A stretch of DNA of 63,997 nt, the filler included, from Reclinomonas americana ATCC 50394 (Eukaryota), in NCBI GenBank assembly GCA_048213135.1. It is 7 parts of 5 records of this genome, joined end to end, with 100 filler letters (N's around TTAATTAATTAA, not from the genome) between each part and the next. Parts side by side here need not be neighbours in the genome. Positions count along the whole stretch, not along the records: positions 12,942 to 18,208 come from PS015060.1; 6 more parts are not named here. The stretch is one strand, 5' to 3'. Shown in pieces: positions 13,663 through 63,997 of the stretch. The position numbers and the translations under genes were made by a program. The notes below the pieces were generated by a model that did no database searches, was not told the DNA's origin, and worked only from the letters and a program-made list of their open reading frames with translations. The stretch's first letter is position 1; the number at the start of each line of letters is the position of its first letter.

Positions 13663-16600
13663 TTACTCATACAAAGTGCTAGTAAAGTCAGGCAAGATCG
13701 AACCACAGATACGCTCAAGCACCTCTACATCCTGCTGTTTGCGACGCACGTAAATCGACTTGCCGAATATTCGAATGGAGAGATTGGCTGTGACGACGGC
13801 ATCACGGGACATGCCGACAAGGTCGGCTTCTGTGCCAAGTCGCACTTCTTCCCCACGCGCAAGCGACCACACTCGCACTGTCCTGTCACGACTCCAGGTT
13901 ATAATGTGCAGCCCATCGGGAGCGACGGCGACAGACCTCACTCGTCCGAAGTGTCCCACCAGCCGTCGCAATTCTTCTCCGCTGGCCAGCGACCACACGC
14001 GCACTGACTCATCTGCACCCCCACTTACGATGTGCTGACCGTCGGGTGTAATGGCTACGGAGAAAACCTCTCCAGCGTGTCCCACCAGCCGGCGCAACTC
14101 CTCTCCGCTCGCCAGTGACCACACGCGGACGGTCTTATCGTCACTACCACTAACTATATGCTGGCCATCCCGAGTGATGACAACTGCCTTCACTGCTCCT
14201 GCATGTCCATCCATTCGTCGCTCTTGCTCTCCACTCAACAGCGACCACACTCGAACAGTTTCGTCAGCACTTCCACTCACAACGTACTGACCATCGGGAG
14301 TGACGGCAACACACCACACAGCATTACTATGCCCGTCCAACCGTAGCATTTCTTCTCCACTCACCAAATCCCATATTCGCACTGTCGTTTCCCAGCTCCC
14401 ACTCACAATTTGTTGATTATCCGGAGTGATGGCAACGCAGAGCACAGCGCGCGAGTGTCCTCCCAGTCGTCGTACGCCTTCCTTGTCCACCAGTGACCAC
14501 ACCCGCACCGTCTCGTCTCTGCCCCCGCTCACAACGTGTTGACTGTCAACACTGACGGCGATACACCGCACCCTTCTGGCGTGGCCTTCCAACCGTCGCG
14601 CCTCTTTACCGCTCGACAGGGACCACACACGCACTGAACCACTCGAATCTCCACTTACAATGTAGCGACCATCTGGAGTGAGCGCGACAGCGAGCACCGC
14701 ACCATCAAGCCCGTTCAACCGTCTCACTTCTTCTCCGCTCGCCTCAGACCACACACGCACTGTCCGATCAGCACCTCCACTTACAAAGTGCTGACCGTCG
14801 TACGTGACGGCAACAGAGTCAACCCCTTCCGTGTGTCCCTCAAATCGTCGCACTTCATCTCCAGTCATAAGCGACCACATACGCATGGACTTGTCAGCAC
14901 TCCCACTAACAATGTGACGACCATCGGGAGTGACGGCAACAGACCACACAACTTCGGTGTGCCCCTCCAACCGTCGCACCTCCTCGCCACACGCCAGTGA
15001 CCAAACACGCACCGTGCAGTCGTGGCTGCCACTCACCACATACTGACCATCGGAAGTGACAGCGACCGACCACACAGCCTTGGTGTGCCCAGTCAACTGC
15101 CGCACTTCCTCTCCACTCGCCAGTGACCACACACGCACAGTCATGTCGGAACTTCCACTAACAACGTGCTGACCATCAGGAGTGATGGCGACAGATTTCA
15201 CCTCCCCAACGTGTCCCTCCAACCGACGCACTTCTTCTCTATTCGCCAGTGTCCATACTCGTATCGTGCGATCATGGCTTCCACTCACAATGTGCTGGCC
15301 ATCGGGAGTGACGGCGACAGACCTCACATCATCAGTATGGCCAACCATCGGCTTCCTCGGCCACTTCACACCAGTCACATCCGCCCCTCTAAAATCCGCC
15401 TCCCTCGCATACGCCATGCACACATTCACCTCTCGCAGATCCGCTCCCCTCCACACCGTCCGGTGCATCACCGCATCCCTCAAATCCGCACCCCTCACTC
15501 GCACACCCGACAGATCTCGTCCACTGAACGACACTTGTGCCACACACAACACCGTCGCTGCATTCGCTGCGGCCGTCACCACTCTCTCTTCATCCACCTC
15601 CTTCGACAACTCAATCACCTCCCACAGTCTCGCTTGCAATCGAGGAGATCGTCGCACCACCTCGGCCATCTGATCCACCAACGATGGTCGATCATTCAGC
15701 AGGCGCACTGCCAGTACATGCTGCTGCACATCCTGCACCGTCAACGTCCTCTCCTCATCCCACGTCTCCCATGCGAACACATGCCGTGCCACACAGTGCT
15801 CCAGCAACGACAGATGCACGAATCCCCACTGCGTCGTCCCATACCGTCGTACAATCGGGCAGCACGCACGCACATGCTGGTTCCTGGAGCCGAGGAACCT
15901 ATCAAACGGTCCCTCTTCCATCCGTCGTCGATGGTCGAGTGGCGCACCGCCAAACTCAGAGATGTCTTCATCGAACGCTCGCTCCTCTGACATCGCTCGC
16001 ACGACATTCCTCTCATGCATCAACCGTGCCAGTCCCTCACAGAACGAGAGACACACCTCCGCACTCGGCAGACGTGTCGCACCGAGACGCGTCTGCCTCC
16101 CTTGCTCCCTCACAATCCACTGTCGAATGAATCGGTCAAACACATCACGCCGCGTCGGCCGCTCCATCACACCACTTGCCACCAACTGCGGCAACACACG
16201 AGCCACCACTGCCAACAGGAATGGATTCGACACCAGCACATCCAGTCCATGCACACTCTTCAGTGCACGAATGTACTCCTCCGCAGTCGGCCATCGCACT
16301 TCTTCGTCGTCGTCATTCTCACCATAATCCACGTGCACTTCAACCAGTCGCGCAAAGTACTCCTCAATTTGCTCCTTGTTGAATGGCGCAATGTGTCGCT
16401 CCATCGGCTGTTGCGTGCACAACTGTCCACATGCATCTACTGGTGCAAAGTAATGTCGATACTGCGTTACACCACCCAGCGCCGTCAGTGCGTAATCGCT
16501 GCGACAGGTGATTATCACCTTCAAGTCGCGACACACGTCCAACTGGTTCTTGACAAACAGGTTCACACCACGGTACAACTCGTCGTACCCGTCAAGCAAC

Positions 16601-18163
16601 AACACCAGTGGTTCCTCCTTCAACCGTCGCACATCCGCCTCACTGAATCCCAGTTCGAGTGACAGTCGCACCAGTGCCTCCTCCAGCAGTCGCTCATCGG
16701 CATTGCGCAGAGCACCGAGAGGCACACGCACAGGCACTCGCCGACTCTCTCTCGCGTGCCACTGTCGCCATGCTCGCTCAGCCAGCACCGACATGGTGGT
16801 AGTCTTGCCAGCTCCACTGTTGCCAAACAGCACCAACACGCGATGCGAGGTGTTGGTGTCGGAGAGGAAAGCATCCACCTCCGTCAGCAGATTCATCATC
16901 CTGTCTCTCGACGAGACGTCACGCTCACGGGAGCACAGAAGTGGCACATACATCTGCATATCCTTGCGCACACCCTCGTCATGCTGATAGAAGAAAAGCT
17001 CACGCACGGCCAGACGATGCAGTCGTTCTTCAAAGGTGCTCATACTGAAGTCGAGGTGACGCGCCTCACGAATGCGTGCCGCGAAACCGTCAAATGTATC
17101 ACCAGGTAGGTGCAGTCCGGAGAGGACGGAGAAGTAGGCACCAGCATCATCAAGATACTCGTGCACACTTGCCTCGGTCCACGCCTGCGACGCGTGCGCC
17201 AACTCATTGCGCACCACTCGCAGCTGATCCAGCGCCTTGCGTTCATCAACATCGTCAATCAGCAGCTGCTGCTGGCCAGATTCTTCAACAAAGACACCAT
17301 ACAGCAGGATGGAGGCGAGCGCCGTCGTGTCGAAACCGTCACACGGAGGGTCGGATGAGGGGTCGGTGTCAAATGCAGCGCGCCAGGCCAATACGTGTGG
17401 ATGCAGTTTTTCATACAATATGACGCGCCTCTTCGGTACCGGCATATGCCGATCACGCCACGCCTTCACTGCCGCCGCATCCATTCCAGCAGGTGCGAAA
17501 CTTGGCACCCATGCCCGCAAATCAAAGTCGGGATGATCACGACTGAACTGCGCCAGTGCGCGTTGACATCGCATACGCAGCGCATCGACTACCACCTCGA
17601 AGGCCACAGTAATGCGGTTCGAGTTAATCATGCTGCACAATGCAAACATAATCAGCACAGACTCACTCCAGGAGAAGAATGAACAAGAGAGGGATGAGGA
17701 TGACTAAGGCAAGCAAAACAAACCGAGTCACTCGCTCCGAGTTGCTGGGCGAGGACATGAGAGTGAGTTGCATGTTACAGAGATGAATCACACACACATA
17801 CCTTCCACTCTCACTTCCACTCGACTGCAGCGCCACGCCAAGTGTCAGACGGACGACGATATGAGTGGATGAGATGACGCCGAGTGCAGCAAGTGGCACG
17901 CCGGCAGCAAGATTGATGTCGTATGGCGCAGGTTTCTCCACCCCCACTATCTCCATCTCCCCATCGCCACTCTTCTCACGCAACAAGCGTGCGGCCTCAC
18001 GCAGCAAGTCCGCGAGACTGGACATGGCCGACATGCCCTCCACCACCACCGACAGCGATGAATCATGCGCCGCACTTACATGCACAGAGAACTACTTGTG
18101 TGCAATGGTCAGCACAGGAGGAGCCCACACAAGCACACGCGAATTCACACGCACCGTTGACAT
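13663..18163 (-). CDS. NLR-like STAND protein: ubiquitin-like + HEPN + NACHT + pentapeptide repeats + 12 WD40 repeats
   Basis: Exons are 18163-18155 (MST), 18091-17802 (UBL-like), 17744-17724 and a ~3.97-kb exon 17632-13663. Motifs: FDTTALASIL..LRVVRNELAH (Rx4H), Walker A GNSGAGKTT, Walker B LLLDGYDEL, VIITCR, NPFLL, FVHLSLLEH, AAANAATVL followed by GADL pentapeptides, then twelve 42-aa GH..VRVWSL repeats. Confidence 0.9.
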
Positions 18164-18352
18164 TGTGTGTGCTCTCCCGAAGCAAGCCACAGATTGATGT
18201 CCCCCTGANNNNNNNNNNNNNNNNNNNNNNNNNNNNNNNNNNNNNNNNNNNNTTAATTAATTAANNNNNNNNNNNNNNNNNNNNNNNNNNNNNNNNNNNN
18301 NNNNNNNNCCCCCCTGCCTGTCCCCATCCCGTCTTCCTACGTATTCTGCGCC

Positions 18353-19730: not shown

Positions 19731-22700
19731 TCACAACGGACGATACCCAGCATTCTCGCCACCACTTACTCTAAACGCGGTGGCCGACGTCGGCGTCGTT
19801 CCCGGCGTTATCGTATCGGTGGACTTGTACGAGCGGCCACCCGGCGACACAATCGGCATGGCCGCCGAGTCGCGCATGCGACGCGTGCTCATCGAAATCG
19901 GCAGGGCGGCCGCGGCCTCCGGATCCAGCTCCGCGGTGCGGCCCACGCCGTCGGTGCCCGGCAGGCCCGGCAGCACGTAAATCGGCGCCGACTCCATCAT
20001 GGCCACGGCGTCTTGTTCGAAGAGGTTGCCCGAGGCGTAGGGTTGCCATGGGTAGGCGTACTGGAAAAGGGAGAGTATGAGGAGAAGGAGGGAGGGAGGA
20101 GAAGGAGGTAGGGAGGAGAAGGCGGAGGGAGAAGACGCAGAGTAGGAGGGGCGACTTGTCCAACATCTGAAACCAATGACTGAACCCACGAAGTGGGTTG
20201 ATTTCTTCTTGCTCCCTCTTTTCCTCAGTCCATCTGTCTCTTCGTCTGCCGGTCTCTGCACACGTAGTCTATCTGTCTATCCCGTTCTATCATTCGCGTT
20301 CTCTCTTTTTATGAGCAACGGCTGCCAGACTGTCTGCATACCTGCTCGCTTGAAATCGTGTCCCTCAATCTTACTTCTCACAGTCCACGTGCCTCTCCTT
20401 GTGTTTCTCTCTCGGAAGCGCACACCTTCCTGCTTGAGTGTACACATTTTCTCTCTGTCTTTCTTCACTTCACACACAGAGCCACTTAATTTAAAACGCG
20501 AAGACAATCAAATCACTTCCAGCGCAGTTGGCTCTCTCTTGCTGTCTGCATGTCTGCTTAATCGGCTGTCTGCATGCTCTCATTTTCCGTTCTATCATTC
20601 TCTCCTTCTCCCTTCCTCCCCCCACTCCCTTCTCCTTTCCCCTTTCCCCCTCCCCCACGCACCAAATGCAACACCGCCACCAGCGCCATCTCAATCACAA
20701 TAATAATATTGTTGATGCTCTCGGCCTCGTCCGACTGCGCCCAATTATCCGGGTACGGCGGCGCGGCGCCCACATACACCAGTAATCTGACCAGCAGCTT
20801 TTGCCTGGGTCACCCGTCAGCACCCCACATCTCCTCTTTTGAGGAGGGGCAAGCGAACGCAACATGAATGTCACCCCAATCAGGAACTGAATGCTAAGCA
20901 GCTTGGTCGCCGGCTGGAACTGGGCCTTTTTCAAATCTATTCCGCAGATTAGAAAGGACGACAAATCTGAGGACTCGCCAGCTCAGCACTCACCAGGATT
21001 GAGAAACCGCACGAGCCCAAAGAGATACAAAACGCACACAGTGGTGCTGACGCCAATGATAATAAAGATCCACATGAAGGGCGACTCGGGCTTGAAGATG
21101 CCGTACAGGTAAAAGTGCAACGCAAAGGCGATGCACGCAAAAACACGGCACAATGGTTTGATGATGGCTGCCACGTCGGTGAGAAGCAAGGGCAATGCAC
21201 AAGTAGCTGGCAAGTCGCCACGCACCGAATTGCCAAGTGGCGAAGCGGGCCTTTTCATAGAACTTGACGTCTACCCTGCTCCGACAGCAAACTGCGGCCA
21301 ACGGAGTCAGTGAGGAGCGAGAGGAGAAGAAAGAGAGTCTCAATCAACGCAACAAATGGTAAAGACACTGCGTGGTGGTCGATCTCGGATCTTTTCGTGC
21401 ACCAGATGCCAGCCGCCGATGCGATCGATGATAAGCCAGAAGAAGCAGAACACGACCCAGGCTGCGTGGTCGAGTGAGGCAAGGTAGGATTGGGAGAAGC
21501 AGAAAGGAGTCGAGTACCTTGATACGTGTCGCGAACCAACTCAATGTATACCAGTTGGTTTTGGAAGGCCGTGGCGAGCCAGGCGGTCACGGCGTATACA
21601 CTAGCAGGGGGAAGGGGAAGGGGGGGGGGTAAGGCGGAGGGGGAAGGAGATGAGCGAGAAGAAAGAGGATGAGCAGAAACTACAAAGGGTGAGCAGCGAG
21701 AGGGAGAGAGAATACGAGACGAGGACGTGCGGGCACTGGCCTCATTCTGTGTATTTCACGACGGACGCTGTCTGCTCACTGTGCTCCCCTCTTTCCATAC
21801 CGACACTCTCTGCAGAGAGAGAGGGAGGAGAGGAGGAGAGGACGAGGAGAGGAGGAGGGAGAGGACGAGTAGTAGGTACGGAAGGAGGACGGGTTACGAA
21901 GAGGAGAAGGNNNNNNNNNNNNNNNNNNNNNNNNNNNNNNNNNNNNNNNNNNNNNNNNNNNNNNNNNNNNNNNNNNNNNNNNNNNNNNNNNNNNNNNNNN
22001 NNNNNNNNNNNNTACGCGTCGTCGACGTCGTCGTACGTCGTCGTACGGCGTACGGTACGAGGAGGAGGAGGAGGAGGAGGAGGAGGAGGAGGAGGAGGAG
22101 GGGAAGGGCAGAGAGAGGAGAGAGTGACTAATGAGGCAGATCTTGCAAAAGGTGAGCAGCAAGAGTGAGAGAATACGAGACAAGGACGCGTACGCACAGG
22201 CCTTCCTCAACATCACACGCGCAGCTCTCCGTCTGTGTCATTCATCGCTGTCTGCTCACTGTGCTCCCCTCTTTCTGGTACGGGCACTTTCTGCAGAGAC
22301 AGAGAGGGGAAGGGGGAGAAAGAGAATAGTAACACGACAGCCGTGAAATGCAACTATAGTTCAATGATTCAAGGAGGACAGACAAGCAAGCAGCAGCGTA
22401 GGAGAGCGAGACATCATTTGCTGAGCAGAAGAGAGTCACGGGAGGCGCAAGGGAGGCAGCAACAAGTCATGACGAACGACTCGGCGAAGGAAATGAACTG
22501 ACAGAGAGGAAACGTGAGCCAGACGGATGTCAAGAGAGAGAGGGCGAGATGGAGAGTGAGGGAATTGACAGAGAGGAAAGAGAGAGGGGAGGAGGAGAGA
22601 GACGACAGAGAGGTAGAGAGAGACAGAGAAACGCGTTTTTGACAAGTGAGAAATGCATTGACTCCTGTCAGAGAGAGAGAGGGTGAGAGAGCATACAAAG

Positions 22701-22969
22701 AGACAAGATCAGAGGGCAAGAGAGAGGAGGCGAGAGCAGCGAGAGCAAAGAAGGACTCGGGCACACTTGCGAATGCTTCAGGGGTCTCTGTGGTTACTCT
22801 CTGAAGAATGATACAGCAAGGACAGAGAGAGAGAGAGAGAGAGAGAGAGATAAGAGAAGGCAGACAGAAAGGAGACAAGAGCAGAGACAAGAGAGACAGA
22901 GGAAGTGAACAGGAGACGGAGAAACGCGCATTGCCCATTTGACAAGTGAGAAATGCATCAACTGCTGTC

Positions 22970-23001
<32 letters not shown>

Positions 23002-23287
23002 GGTGAGAGAGAGAGGCCTCACTCTGTGTCTGAGTGTGTGTGTGTGTGTTTCACGCAACGGAGCAAACAATATAATAACTAATGTTGGTCTTTGCAGCAG
23101 TGGAGTGCTCCAGTTCATCAAGTGTCGCACCACAGAGTACATTGTGATGGCCAGAGTCACTGTATATGTGTGTGTGAGTGAGTGAGTGAAACAAGAGAGA
23201 GTGAGTGGAGACACAAAGAGAAAGAGATTCGAAACGTAATGCAAATGAGCCCGTGACCCACAGCACATCCTTGCGCATGGTCACCAT
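19731..23287 (-). CDS. TMEM184/organic solute transporter alpha (Solute_trans_a) family membrane protein
   Basis: The spliced product reads MVTMRKDVLWVTGSFALLTLAITMYSVVRHLMNWSTPLLQRPTLVIILFAPVYAVTAW..IELVRDTYQAWVVFCFFWLI..WQFAIIKPL..KLLSIQFLIGVTFMQ..NNIIIVIEMALVAVLHLYAYPWQPY, which matches the family motifs. Confidence 0.88.
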
Positions 23288-37741: not shown

Positions 37742-45406
<7,665 letters not shown>

Positions 45407-47305: not shown

Positions 47306-47435
47306 NNNNNNNNNNNNNNNNNNNNNNNNNNNNNNNNNNNNNNNNNNNNTTAATTAATTAANNNNNNNNNNNNNNNNNNNNNNNNNNNNNNNNNNNNNNN
47401 NNNNNGTGTCTGCTTCTCTATTGTCCTCCTTGCAG

Positions 47436-56530: not shown

Positions 56531-56715
56531 NNNNNNNNNNNNNNNNNNNNNNNNNNNNNNNNNNNNNNNNNNNNTTAATTAATTAANNNNNNNNNNNNNN
56601 NNNNNNNNNNNNNNNNNNNNNNNNNNNNNNACGTACGTACGTACGTACGTACGTACGTACGTACGTACGTACGTACGTACGTACGTACGTACTACTACGT
56701 ACTACTACTACTCTA

Positions 56716-59457: not shown

Positions 59458-60184
59458 TGTCTTTGATTTGTGAGTGTGGGACTTGCGCGTGTCCTTTTCG
59501 CTTTATGAGGCGCGACGTTGTTGTTGCAGGCTCAGGTAACGGGCTGTCTGGATAACCGCACGTACTTCGCCACACTGGCACTGGTGTGTGAAGACAGCGG
59601 GTGCATTGTTGCTCTCGGAACGTCGCAGCGAGAGGTCCAAATCTTTGAAGTCATAAATTGGACATGAATTGCAAGCTCAAGGCCTCCGAGGGCCTTTTAA
59701 CTGTGTCTTTGTATGCTGTTGTTGTACCAAGGTCATTGTCGGCAATGTGGTTTGTTCTGCTCGTAACGGCACGTCTAGCATCATTCGTGCTGCAAGGGGA
59801 GACACCGATAATCACGCTTGTGACGTTGCTCCGGAGGTAGCAAGCGATGATAAGGGAGGAGAGAGACACCGATCAGTCGGCCACACACCCGCTGCGTCGA
59901 GTCAGCAGCAAGCGAAACGCAAAAAGCACGCACACAACGCAACAGTTCGTGACAGAAACTCCACGACTAATATCCAGGACACACAAGACTCTCTTCCTCT
60001 CACCCTTCCCCTTCTCCTTCCCCTCCCCTCTCCCCTTCCCTTCATACCCACAGCACTCATTCATTGACAGAGAGGCTACACCGAATGTACAAGCGAGTGA
60101 GAACAGCGGGGTGGGATGGAAAAAAAGAGGAGCCGGCGGCGACAACCCAACAGGCGCTCGGCGTGGATCTCTTTGTGTTTGTTT

Positions 60185-60711
60185 TTAGTCGCACTCCTCG
60201 GTGATCTTGAACTTCGGGTGCTTCGGAATTGCCCCTGTGTGACAAAAAGTGAGCAAAAAACCCCTCTCCCTTTCCCTCCCTCCAAGTCACGCAACAGTGG
60301 CAAAACTCGTCAAACAGAATGACGCCACCACCGTCGGCGTCGATCTTGCGGAAGGTGCGCTCAGGGTCCTTGACCTCGAGGCCCCACTCCTGCAGCAGCG
60401 GCACGGCGGCGATGAACTCGCGCAGGCCAATGCGGCGATCGTTGCTGGTGTCGATCTTGAGGAAGAGCTGGTACAGCTCAAAGTACCGCTTCAGGTAGAT
60501 GAGCAGGTGGCGGAACTCGGCGCGCTGCACGTAGTCGTCGCCAGCCGCCGACTTGCCGTGGTACTTGGCCTTGGCGGCGTTAAAGGCGCGCATAATGACC
60601 GGCTTGCAGTCAAAGATCTCGTGCAGCTGCAGCACCTCCAGCAGGCCGCGGTCGACCTCGGCCAGGGAGAGCAGGCCGTTGCCGTTCGGGTCGAACGAGT
60701 CGAACATGATG
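60185..60711 (-). CDS. Flagellar calcium-binding protein (calflagin/FCaBP-like EF-hand), 3' part
   Basis: MFDSFDPNGNGLLSLAEVDRGL..KPVIMRAFNAAK..DDYVQRAEFRHLLIYLKRYFELYQLFLKIDTSNDRRI..FRKIDADGGGVILFDEFCH|WAI. The T|GTTGCG intron restores the conserved F..WA. Confidence 0.9.
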
Positions 60712-60900
60712 CTGCGGGGAGGGGAAGTAGGAGAAGGAGGGGAGAAGGGGTGAGGGGATGAGGGGAAGGGGAAGGAAGGGGATGGAGGGGAAGGGGAAGG
60801 NNNNNNNNNNNNNNNNNNNNNNNNNNNNNNNNNNNNNNNNNNNNTTAATTAATTAANNNNNNNNNNNNNNNNNNNNNNNNNNNNNNNNNNNNNNNNNNNN

Positions 60901-62641: not shown

Positions 62642-62804
62642 NNNNNNNNNNNNNNNNNNNNNNNNNNNNNNNNNNNNNNNNNNNNTTAATTAATTAANNN
62701 NNNNNNNNNNNNNNNNNNNNNNNNNNNNNNNNNNNNNNNNNTGATGATGCCACGTGCGATGAAATGCCACACGGGCCACTCTCACTCTCACTAACTGTCG
62801 ATTG

Positions 62805-63997
62805 TTACAAGACAATCTTGCTGGCTCCCTGCGCACGGGCGGCCGAGCGCTTCAGCGTCTCCAGTGGCGGCGTCTTCGGCTCCGTCAGTGGTGCCTCCGA
62901 CGGCTTGGGGACGAACGGCTTGCTGTTCGGCACCGGCTGCGCCTTGAAGACCGACGCGGCCTTGCGAGCTTCCGCGGCCTCGTCAGCAGCCCGCTTCTGG
63001 ACGGCGCACAGGTCGCCAGCAGTGAGTTCATCCATGTTACCCAAGCAAGAAAAAGAAAAAGACTGGTCACATGCTGCGCTGTTCGAACCTCTTCCTCTTG
63101 CCGCCTCAGCTCGGCTGCCACCTCGGCTTCGCGTTGCTTGGTGTGCATGTGCTCGTCAAAGGCGTGGCGGGCGACGGCGCGCACGTCCGAGTTGAGGTTG
63201 AATGGCTGCACCTCGGTCGGTGGCACGTTGCTCGGGCGCGGAGTGAACGGCACCATGTCCTTCTTGAAGGGGCGAGCGTGGAAGTGGCGTTGCTTCTCCT
63301 CGTCCTGCTGCTTGCGCTGGTTCTCGGCCTCGAAGCGGTGCACGACCTCCGAGTGGCGCTCCACCGACTTTAGGTGGAACTCGCACGGCTGCGTCACTGG
63401 AATGACGGGCTTGGGCGGCAGCTGCGCGAACACACACAGTTGTTGCTCAGCAAAAGAATATAGACGGGAAAGGTGCTGCGCGACTCACCGCCGACACGCC
63501 CTCCGGCATCGGGCGGGCATGGAAGTGCTGCTGCTCCTCCTGCTGCTTCTTCTCGGCCTCCAGCTTCTCGCGCAAGCGCTCCTCCTTCTTCTTGCCGCGC
63601 TGCAAATCAAAATCAAAAGTGAGTGACGATGCACGCTACACACACACACACACGTCTCGCTTCTGCGCGCACGCACCTCGTCGGTGGCCAAGTGTGGCTC
63701 ATGGAAGGCGACGGGCTTGTGCTCGGTCTTCTTGGGCTTGAACGGCGATCCGACCGGCATGGCACGAGCATGGAACTGCACCGGCTTCTCCTCCTCGACG
63801 TGCACCTGCGGGCGGTGGGCGGCGCGCTCCTTGGTGCACAGTGCCGGGCTCTCTGGCTTGGTCGGTGGCGGCGGAGCCACTGAGTGAGCGGACGGCTTGT
63901 TCTCGTAGAAGGTCGACTGGTTCCACGGCTGTGCCTTGAACGGCGCTGCGTTGTCGGCAACAAAGTCCTTGGCCTCACGAGCGCGAATGTTCTCCGC
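62805..63997 (-). CDS. TPX2: TPX2-like microtubule-associated protein, 3' part
   Basis: Repeated F[HK]A[RQ]P motifs and T.P..[PF].L..RA units end in QPFNLNSDVRAVARHAFDE..FKAQPVP..KPSEAPLTEPKTPPL, the TPX2 C-terminal domain pattern. Confidence 0.78.

Follow-up and report, generated by a model that had tools for sequence, protein, structure and literature searches.

A 63,997-nucleotide stretch of DNA from Reclinomonas americana ATCC 50394 (GenBank assembly GCA_048213135.1), referred to here as the window, carries on its minus strand a gene for a receptor of the NOD-like receptor (NLR) or STAND (signal transduction ATPase with numerous domains) type. Seven separate contigs make up the window, with N44-TTAATTAATTAA-N44 linkers between them, and the receptor gene occupies the contig at 12942-18208 (5267 bp, GC content 0.563). 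With moderate confidence, we read the locus as one eukaryotic gene for an NLR-like STAND receptor of approximately 1320-1420 residues that bears a probable HEPN RNase head and, less securely, a short leader encoded upstream. The receptor reading itself, consisting of an effector position, a NACHT domain, and repeats, is solid.

Architecture of the receptor gene

A stop-free frame of 1346 codons spans positions 13663-17703 on the minus strand. The parts of the gene, from its 5' end onward, are as follows:

18155-18163, minus strand: speculative first exon of 9 nt (ATG TCA ACG), with the ATG at 18163 and a GTGCGT donor next to it; its phase 0 fits the next exon.
18092-18154, minus strand: proposed intron 1, 63 nt, GTGCGT...TAG, matching in size the 55-80 nt introns of the Spb1-type gene on the first contig.
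17802-18091, minus strand: upstream exon, 96 codons plus 2 nt, delimited by codon usage; candidate ubiquitin-like domain.
17633-17801, minus strand: proposed intron 2, with a GTATGT donor at 17801 and an acceptor AG at 17633 (169 nt) or 17666 (136 nt).
13663-17632, minus strand: long exon, 1322 codons from the ATG at 17631, plus the stop.
17107-17625, minus strand: HEPN-like N-terminal domain, predicted to be all-helical, at about residues 3-175 of the long exon.
17194-17211, minus strand: RNELAH, candidate RNase active-site motif (Rx4H), read from the sequence.
16843-17106, minus strand: putative helical linker from the HEPN-like domain to NACHT, taken from a low-confidence model; no family match.
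16351-16842, minus strand: NACHT NTPase domain, from Pfam and motifs.
15544-16350, minus strand: post-NACHT region without a recognised family (no significant Pfam match).
15343-15543, minus strand: pentapeptide-repeat stretch, from Pfam, NCBIfam, and PDB.
13831-15342, minus strand: 12 WD40 repeats with an exact 42-residue period, from Pfam and repeat analysis.
13666-13830, minus strand: C-terminal tail of 55 residues, no family, from the sequence.

The tripartite order typified by an effector position (approximately 260 residues), an NTPase, and a repeat sensor is present in this gene. The NACHT domain scored 35.0 bits against a Pfam cut-off of 26.7 (PF05729; E = 1.6e-8; profile positions 1-161 of 167), and its characteristic motifs are in place, including an intact Walker A (GNSGAGKT, 16801-16824, residue 270), an intact NACHT-type Walker B (VLLLDGYDE, 16579-16605, residue 343), and, after the latter, a TCR motif (VIITCR, 16501-16518, residue 372). 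The pentapeptide stretch likewise exceeded its Pfam cut-off (29.2 versus 20.2 bits), matched NCBIfam models of the MfpA/HetL/Qnr type, and retrieved solved pentapeptide-repeat proteins from the PDB sequences with E values down to 2.5e-9. The WD40 part, recognised by Pfam above its cut-off in 12 stretches (E = 2.4e-127), is built of 12 units of exactly 42 residues (DNA period of 126 nt, 11.8 copies), and the variation among units falls mostly at positions 3-5, 7, 23, and 25. The initial annotation, made from the sequence alone, had placed NACHT, pentapeptides, and 12 WD40 repeats in this order, and each family was recovered above its Pfam cut-off. On the opposite strand, the plus-strand frames over the gene are shadows of the repeat; scans of two of them (13555-14004 and 17865-18194) returned no family match.

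A second WD40 array with the same 42-residue repeat type opens the next contig (18311-19456, plus strand) and shares 42-48% identity with the array of the receptor. It probably represents the C-terminal portion of a paralogous receptor, the N-terminus of which would be missing from the contig. Because such a related array starts a neighbouring contig, the receptor belongs to a gene family; our search of the window found no paralogue of its N-terminal or NACHT part.

A candidate HEPN domain ahead of NACHT

The N-terminal domain is likely to be a HEPN domain. Specifically, the first approximately 175 residues of the long exon probably make up a divergent HEPN domain whose metal-independent RNase site would be RNELAH. 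Three weak concordant lines make this assignment probable: the motif, sub-threshold Pfam matches viewed against controls, and matches in a protein atlas. RNELAH, found exactly at the position first assigned to it, reads as the HEPN pattern Rx4-6H with a polar residue (N, D, or H) after the arginine. Across the 127,990 six-frame codons of the window, RNxxAH occurs once, RNxxxH 14 times, and Rx4H 507 times; a bare Rx4H is therefore meaningless alone, and it is the full RN..AH form that is rare.

When N-terminal segments of 91-215 residues were compared with Pfam, the two leading families were always HEPN_Swt1 and DUF4145, both below threshold, with HEPN_Swt1 reaching E values of 0.036-0.13 (13.0-14.8 bits; profile positions 74-108 of 115). 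The 91-residue segment also matched HEPN_RiboL-PSP weakly; five weak matches were listed on the motif helix, and those to HEPN_Swt1, DUF4145, and HEPN_RiboL-PSP all span it. DUF4145 is itself counted as a HEPN family (PMC3710099). The control set comprised stop-free 91-residue segments from the six frames of the window, centred on any Rx4H (114 eligible). We ran 92 of these, one being the real segment, and a HEPN family at E <= 0.5 appeared for 0 of the 91 controls among the matches listed. For five of these segments, which are in-frame WD40 sequence, the matches listed were the best 25 of 39-52 families. A feature search of the protein atlas with the N-terminus gave clusters of HEPN_Swt1 (0.82) and DZIP3-like HEPN (0.79) at ranks 1 and 2, and all ten of the best named matches shared one family or clan.

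In a single-sequence AlphaFold 2 (AF2) model of the 262-residue N-terminus, which is all-helical, the motif closes helix 130-147, and a loop leads from it to helix 153-173. In the published HEPN layout, Rx4H stands at the end of helix 3 with a polar residue after the arginine (PMC3710099), and the modelled position of RNELAH, together with its asparagine, matches that arrangement. The helix position carries no weight because the model has a mean predicted local distance difference test (pLDDT) score of 38.7. A two-copy complex prediction for residues 40-200 of the long exon scored 0.00 relative to a mark of 0.32, the chain's own fold being uncertain, and weighs neither for nor against the assignment; a tblastn search of plasmids with the HEPN segment gave one irrelevant match (E = 1). 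A second string of the R-x5-H kind, RIREARH (17056-17076, minus strand), lies in the linker helix 45 residues after RNELAH and is probably a chance occurrence because no polar residue follows its arginine.

Several results weigh against the HEPN assignment. None of the curated Pfam cut-offs was reached by HEPN_Swt1 (14.8 versus 27.5 bits), DUF4145 (13.9 versus 23.1), or HEPN_RiboL-PSP (11.5 versus 28.4), and the full N-terminus of 262-300 residues returned no HEPN match in Pfam, NCBIfam, PADLOC, or PHROGs. The DZIP3 HEPN family, PF18738, was absent at E <= 10 from the Pfam scans of the N-terminus. Moreover, the weak Pfam matches are largely driven by the motif, the same one that prompted the hypothesis, and atlas scores below 0.9 serve as leads only, given that one third of shuffled proteins reach 0.8. 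The AF2 model is of low confidence, Foldseek found 0 matches to it in the PDB at E <= 0.001, and a phmmer search of the PDB sequences with the N-terminus likewise gave 0 matches at E <= 10. Upstream of Rx4H, the Ex3[KR] pattern occurs 0 times in residues 1-135; this helix 2 feature is typical of many HEPN families, not all. The HEPN head proposed in the initial annotation thus retains its motif, a weak Swt1 match in Pfam, and Swt1 and DZIP3 leads in the atlas, and falls short of every curated cut-off. A Pfam search of the first approximately 300 residues, from which HEPN and ubiquitin-like hits had been anticipated, yielded neither, with Swt1 emerging below threshold on shorter segments.

The upstream exon and a possible ubiquitin-like leader

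One or two short upstream exons appear to supply a leader of approximately 100 residues, perhaps a non-conjugatable ubiquitin-like domain; this part of the reading is probable but weaker than that for the HEPN-like domain. We consider it fairly likely that the upstream exon and the long exon belong to the same gene, and evenly balanced whether the upstream exon folds as a beta-grasp. The exon lies within an open frame of 142 codons (17663-18091, minus strand). Under a codon-usage model built from the part of the gene that encodes NACHT and WD40, the frame 18091-17802 scored a log-odds of +0.28 per codon, and the other five frames were negative. Only 3 of 315 open frames of at least 90 aa scored above it, and its GC content at the three codon positions (0.667/0.469/0.635) lies beside that of the main exon (0.666/0.451/0.596). 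Beyond the GTATGT donor at 17801, the next 46 codons look non-coding: with them included, the mean score of the frame (142 codons) is 0.15 instead of 0.28. At the other end, the score rises when the 19 codons ahead of the internal ATG (18034) are included, which suggests that they are coding, and if so, the in-frame TAG at 18092-18094 means that an acceptor is needed there. The frame of the 9-nt exon stays open upstream to the contig end at 18208, and further coding sequence may lie off the contig. Since the contig stops 45 nt upstream of the proposed first ATG, the true 5' end of the receptor is uncertain.

For intron 2, the acceptor AG ending at 17666 directly follows a long polypyrimidine tract, and both candidate acceptors (17666 and 17633) keep the frame. 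The splice sites implied by the initial annotation are thus present and in frame, and codon usage bears out its reading of the upstream exon as coding. The ubiquitin-like identity it gave to that exon fared less well: the 77-, 96-, and 142-residue versions matched 0 Pfam families at E <= 10, phmmer gave 0 PDB sequence matches, and the identity survives as an atlas lead. In the atlas, the three best clusters for the exon were unnamed (0.89-0.91), and ubiquitin and Rad60-SLD were the only named families (0.86-0.88). Additional findings count against the leader as part of the receptor or as a ubiquitin-like fold, namely, the weak discriminating power of splice frame compatibility (64 of 195 GT/AG pairs are in frame), the low confidence of the AF2 model of the 96-residue exon (a strand-strand-helix...strand order at pLDDT 48.7), and 0 Foldseek matches to that model at E <= 0.001. 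The exon has no Gly-Gly end and terminates in a Ser/Gly-rich linker; if it is a ubiquitin-like domain, the missing Gly-Gly end would make it a built-in one rather than a modifier.

Alternative explanations

It is conceivable that the NACHT-WD40 receptor is real and its N-terminal helices constitute an unrelated signalling or membrane-attacking domain that carries RNELAH by chance. The failure to reach any curated HEPN cut-off, a fold left unverified by the models, the lack of an upstream Ex3[KR], and the frequency with which Rx4H arises by chance (507 per 127,990 codons) would all fit such a domain. However, no other effector family (HeLo, Goodbye, SesA, Death, TIR, etc.) appeared at E <= 10, HEPN was the only family signal and came through two methods with none in the controls, and the complete RN..AH form has no second occurrence in the window, so that we regard a chance motif as unlikely. 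A separate question concerns the upstream frame, which might be a small gene, an untranslated region, or a decayed exon, with translation of the NLR beginning at ATG 17649 or ATG 17631, perhaps directly behind a trans-splice acceptor. The ATG at 17631 is only 1 nt past the AG at 17633, the HEPN-like domain begins right at this ATG, and the long polypyrimidine tract before the AG at 17666 resembles that of a leader-addition site. Euglenozoan hosts trans-splice their mRNAs, and the flagellar calcium-binding protein (FCaBP)-type EF-hand protein on another contig (73.7 bits) may be taken as a euglenozoan hint; furthermore, the in-frame splice is not statistically special, and the upstream frame has no family match. 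Against such a separation, the upstream frame shares the codon usage of the gene in a single one of the six reading frames and no longer does so beyond the GTATGT donor, its stop would be only 32 nt from the ATG of the NLR, and cis-introns with GT-AG ends are present in the genome. We therefore hold a separate upstream frame to be possible but doubtful.

Contamination, in which the 5.3-kb contig would be bacterial (e.g., cyanobacterial or actinobacterial) and the gene a prokaryotic NACHT-pentapeptide-WD40 defence gene, is highly improbable. Such an origin would fit the short contig and the lack of introns in the 1346-codon frame, and multicellular bacteria often combine NACHT with pentapeptides and highly regular WD40 repeats. 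However, neither the N-terminal nor the NACHT part had a close relative in a scan of 185,579 prokaryotic species genomes (one genome per species), a scan that detects close relatives only. In addition, the contig resembles the others in its GC content (0.563) and in the CT microsatellite at its end, and the related WD40 array sits on a 29-kb contig that also carries split eukaryotic genes. The lack of a close prokaryotic relative in that scan, the matching GC content, the shared CT microsatellites, and the paralogue beside split eukaryotic genes together argue against contamination.

Relation to known systems

In fungal receptors of the HET-E/NWD type, NACHT is likewise followed by regular 42-residue WD40 repeats that vary at a few positions; their effector is a HET or other domain, not HEPN. 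RNase L and the Ire1 KEN domain offer an analogy rather than membership, in that a HEPN-type RNase is activated when a ligand-binding module gathers at least two copies. In these two proteins, assembly proceeds through ankyrin/pseudokinase or kinase modules instead of a STAND NTPase, and the HEPN domain is circularly permuted. The arginine, the histidine, and the polar residue after the arginine are catalytic in both (PMC3710099). Bacterial HEPN-STAND-repeat and NACHT/Avs-type receptors combine a nuclease at the N-terminus with a STAND NTPase and a repeat sensor in the same way (PMC3710099), whereas the present gene stands in a eukaryotic context with probable introns and has no close prokaryotic relative that we could find.

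The same layout is known from animals. Fusions of DZIP3-type and CXorf38-type HEPN domains to NACHT and repeats in animals were already catalogued in 2013, with expansions in Nematostella, oyster, and Capsaspora and with HEPN-STAND-TPR proteins in bacteria (PMC3710099). The pearl oyster is reported to have more than 50 HEPN-NACHT-repeat genes, some with WD40 ends, and in their HEPN domains Rx4H is the commonest form, usually with asparagine after the arginine (PMC9646362). Overall, the DZIP3/hRUL138-like HEPN NLRs of pearl oyster, cnidarians, and amphioxus share with our receptor an N-terminal HEPN domain having Rx4H with asparagine after the arginine, a central NACHT, C-terminal repeats (WD40, TPR, or LRR), and expanded families (PMC9646362, PMC3710099). 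The lack of a PF18738 match makes our receptor at most a distant relative of this group, from which it also differs in its pentapeptide stretch between NACHT and WD40, its possible ubiquitin-like leader, and its possibly non-animal host. The Swt1 clade provided both the best weak Pfam match and the best atlas match; the score was about half the curated cut-off, and neither a Zn-ribbon insert nor a double-stranded RNA-binding domain was seen. CXorf38 is listed in the table entry adjoining Swt1, and CXorf38-type domains are fused to NACHT in cephalochordates and cnidarians (PMC3710099). Sacsin provides a precedent for ubiquitin-like and HEPN domains in one protein (PMC3710099), although its HEPN domain is C-terminal and of a different family, and it possesses neither NACHT nor WD40.

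Because N-terminal HEPN, NACHT, and repeats have already been described together in molluscs, cnidarians, amphioxus, and bacteria, the receptor represents a variation on a known design. It departs from that design in a HEPN-like domain outside the current Pfam families, the pentapeptide stretch, a possible ubiquitin-like domain, and a possibly non-animal host. Judged by titles and abstract openings, we found no paper describing this set of features together. A title-based search found no NLR paper on NACHT in Diplonema or Euglena, and our literature search returned nothing on HEPN NLRs in unicellular eukaryotes.

Genomic surroundings

Genes on either side of a linker are not genomic neighbours, since the contigs were joined end to end. 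The positions of the linkers and of the other split genes are as follows:

12842-12941, 18209-18308, 47306-47405, 56531-56630, 60801-60900, and 62642-62741: linkers, joins between contigs.
20986-21270 and 22936-23208, minus strand; 40907-41218 and 43832-44362, plus strand; 62888-63484, minus strand: fragments of split genes, as a group.

On the first contig, a gene for an Spb1-type rRNA methyltransferase (3819-8142, plus strand) is divided into FtsJ, DUF3381, and Spb1_C pieces. It contains four clear GT-AG introns of approximately 55-80 nt, with donors that are mostly GTGAG and 3' ends formed by a pyrimidine-rich tract and YAG, and these introns serve as the local splice-site reference. The genome is eukaryotic, with short spliceosomal introns, and a trypanosomatid-style intronless reading of the whole window is ruled out by the four short introns in the Spb1 gene. 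The other split genes comprise fragments of a Solute_trans_a transporter, a protein kinase, a SPRY domain, and a TPX2 domain, which are consistent with an intron-bearing eukaryote. An EF-hand protein (60060-60800, minus strand) matched the FCaBP EF-hand model at 73.7 bits; FCaBPs are characteristic proteins of kinetoplastids and related lineages, which makes the match a hint to the host lineage. Contig ends and intergenic sequence (1-60, 12942-12990, 37875-38486, and elsewhere) contain long CT/GA and TG/CA dinucleotide microsatellites, the probable cause of the fragmented assembly. Rfam gave 0 matches over the whole window.

Proposed mechanism and implications

The module architecture can be read directly from the gene, and a mode of action may be proposed for it that parallels RNase L, Ire1, and the nuclease-armed STAND receptors of bacteria. 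Ligand binding by the WD40 and pentapeptide module would release the NACHT domain, allowing nucleotide exchange and oligomerisation. The N-terminal HEPN domains would thereby be brought together to form active RNase sites, whose Rx4H motifs could cut cellular or invader RNA in a metal-independent manner, and this cleavage could lead to translation arrest, cell death, or virus restriction. The leader, if ubiquitin-like, might act as a built-in regulatory or docking module for the effector. The functions named in the initial annotation, "immunity or cell suicide" for the receptor and "adaptor or integrated decoy" for the ubiquitin-like domain, are likewise inferences.

If only the NACHT-WD40 part holds, the protein would be an unremarkable representative of a very large class of receptors. 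The most far-reaching reading, which we rate as quite unlikely, is that a possibly non-animal eukaryote, perhaps a euglenozoan, possesses an NLR-like family armed with a previously unclassified HEPN RNase effector and equipped with a built-in ubiquitin-like domain as a safety catch or docking module. Were this true, RNase-armed NLR immunity would have arisen, or been independently assembled, outside animals and bacteria. The possible ubiquitin-like domain before the RNase would be a candidate means of controlling such an effector. If the HEPN assignment and a non-animal host both prove true, the design of sensor repeats, a STAND switch, and an RNase would reach a third, unicellular setting, and the receptor would offer a compact, intron-poor gene for direct tests of oligomerisation-activated RNA cleavage.

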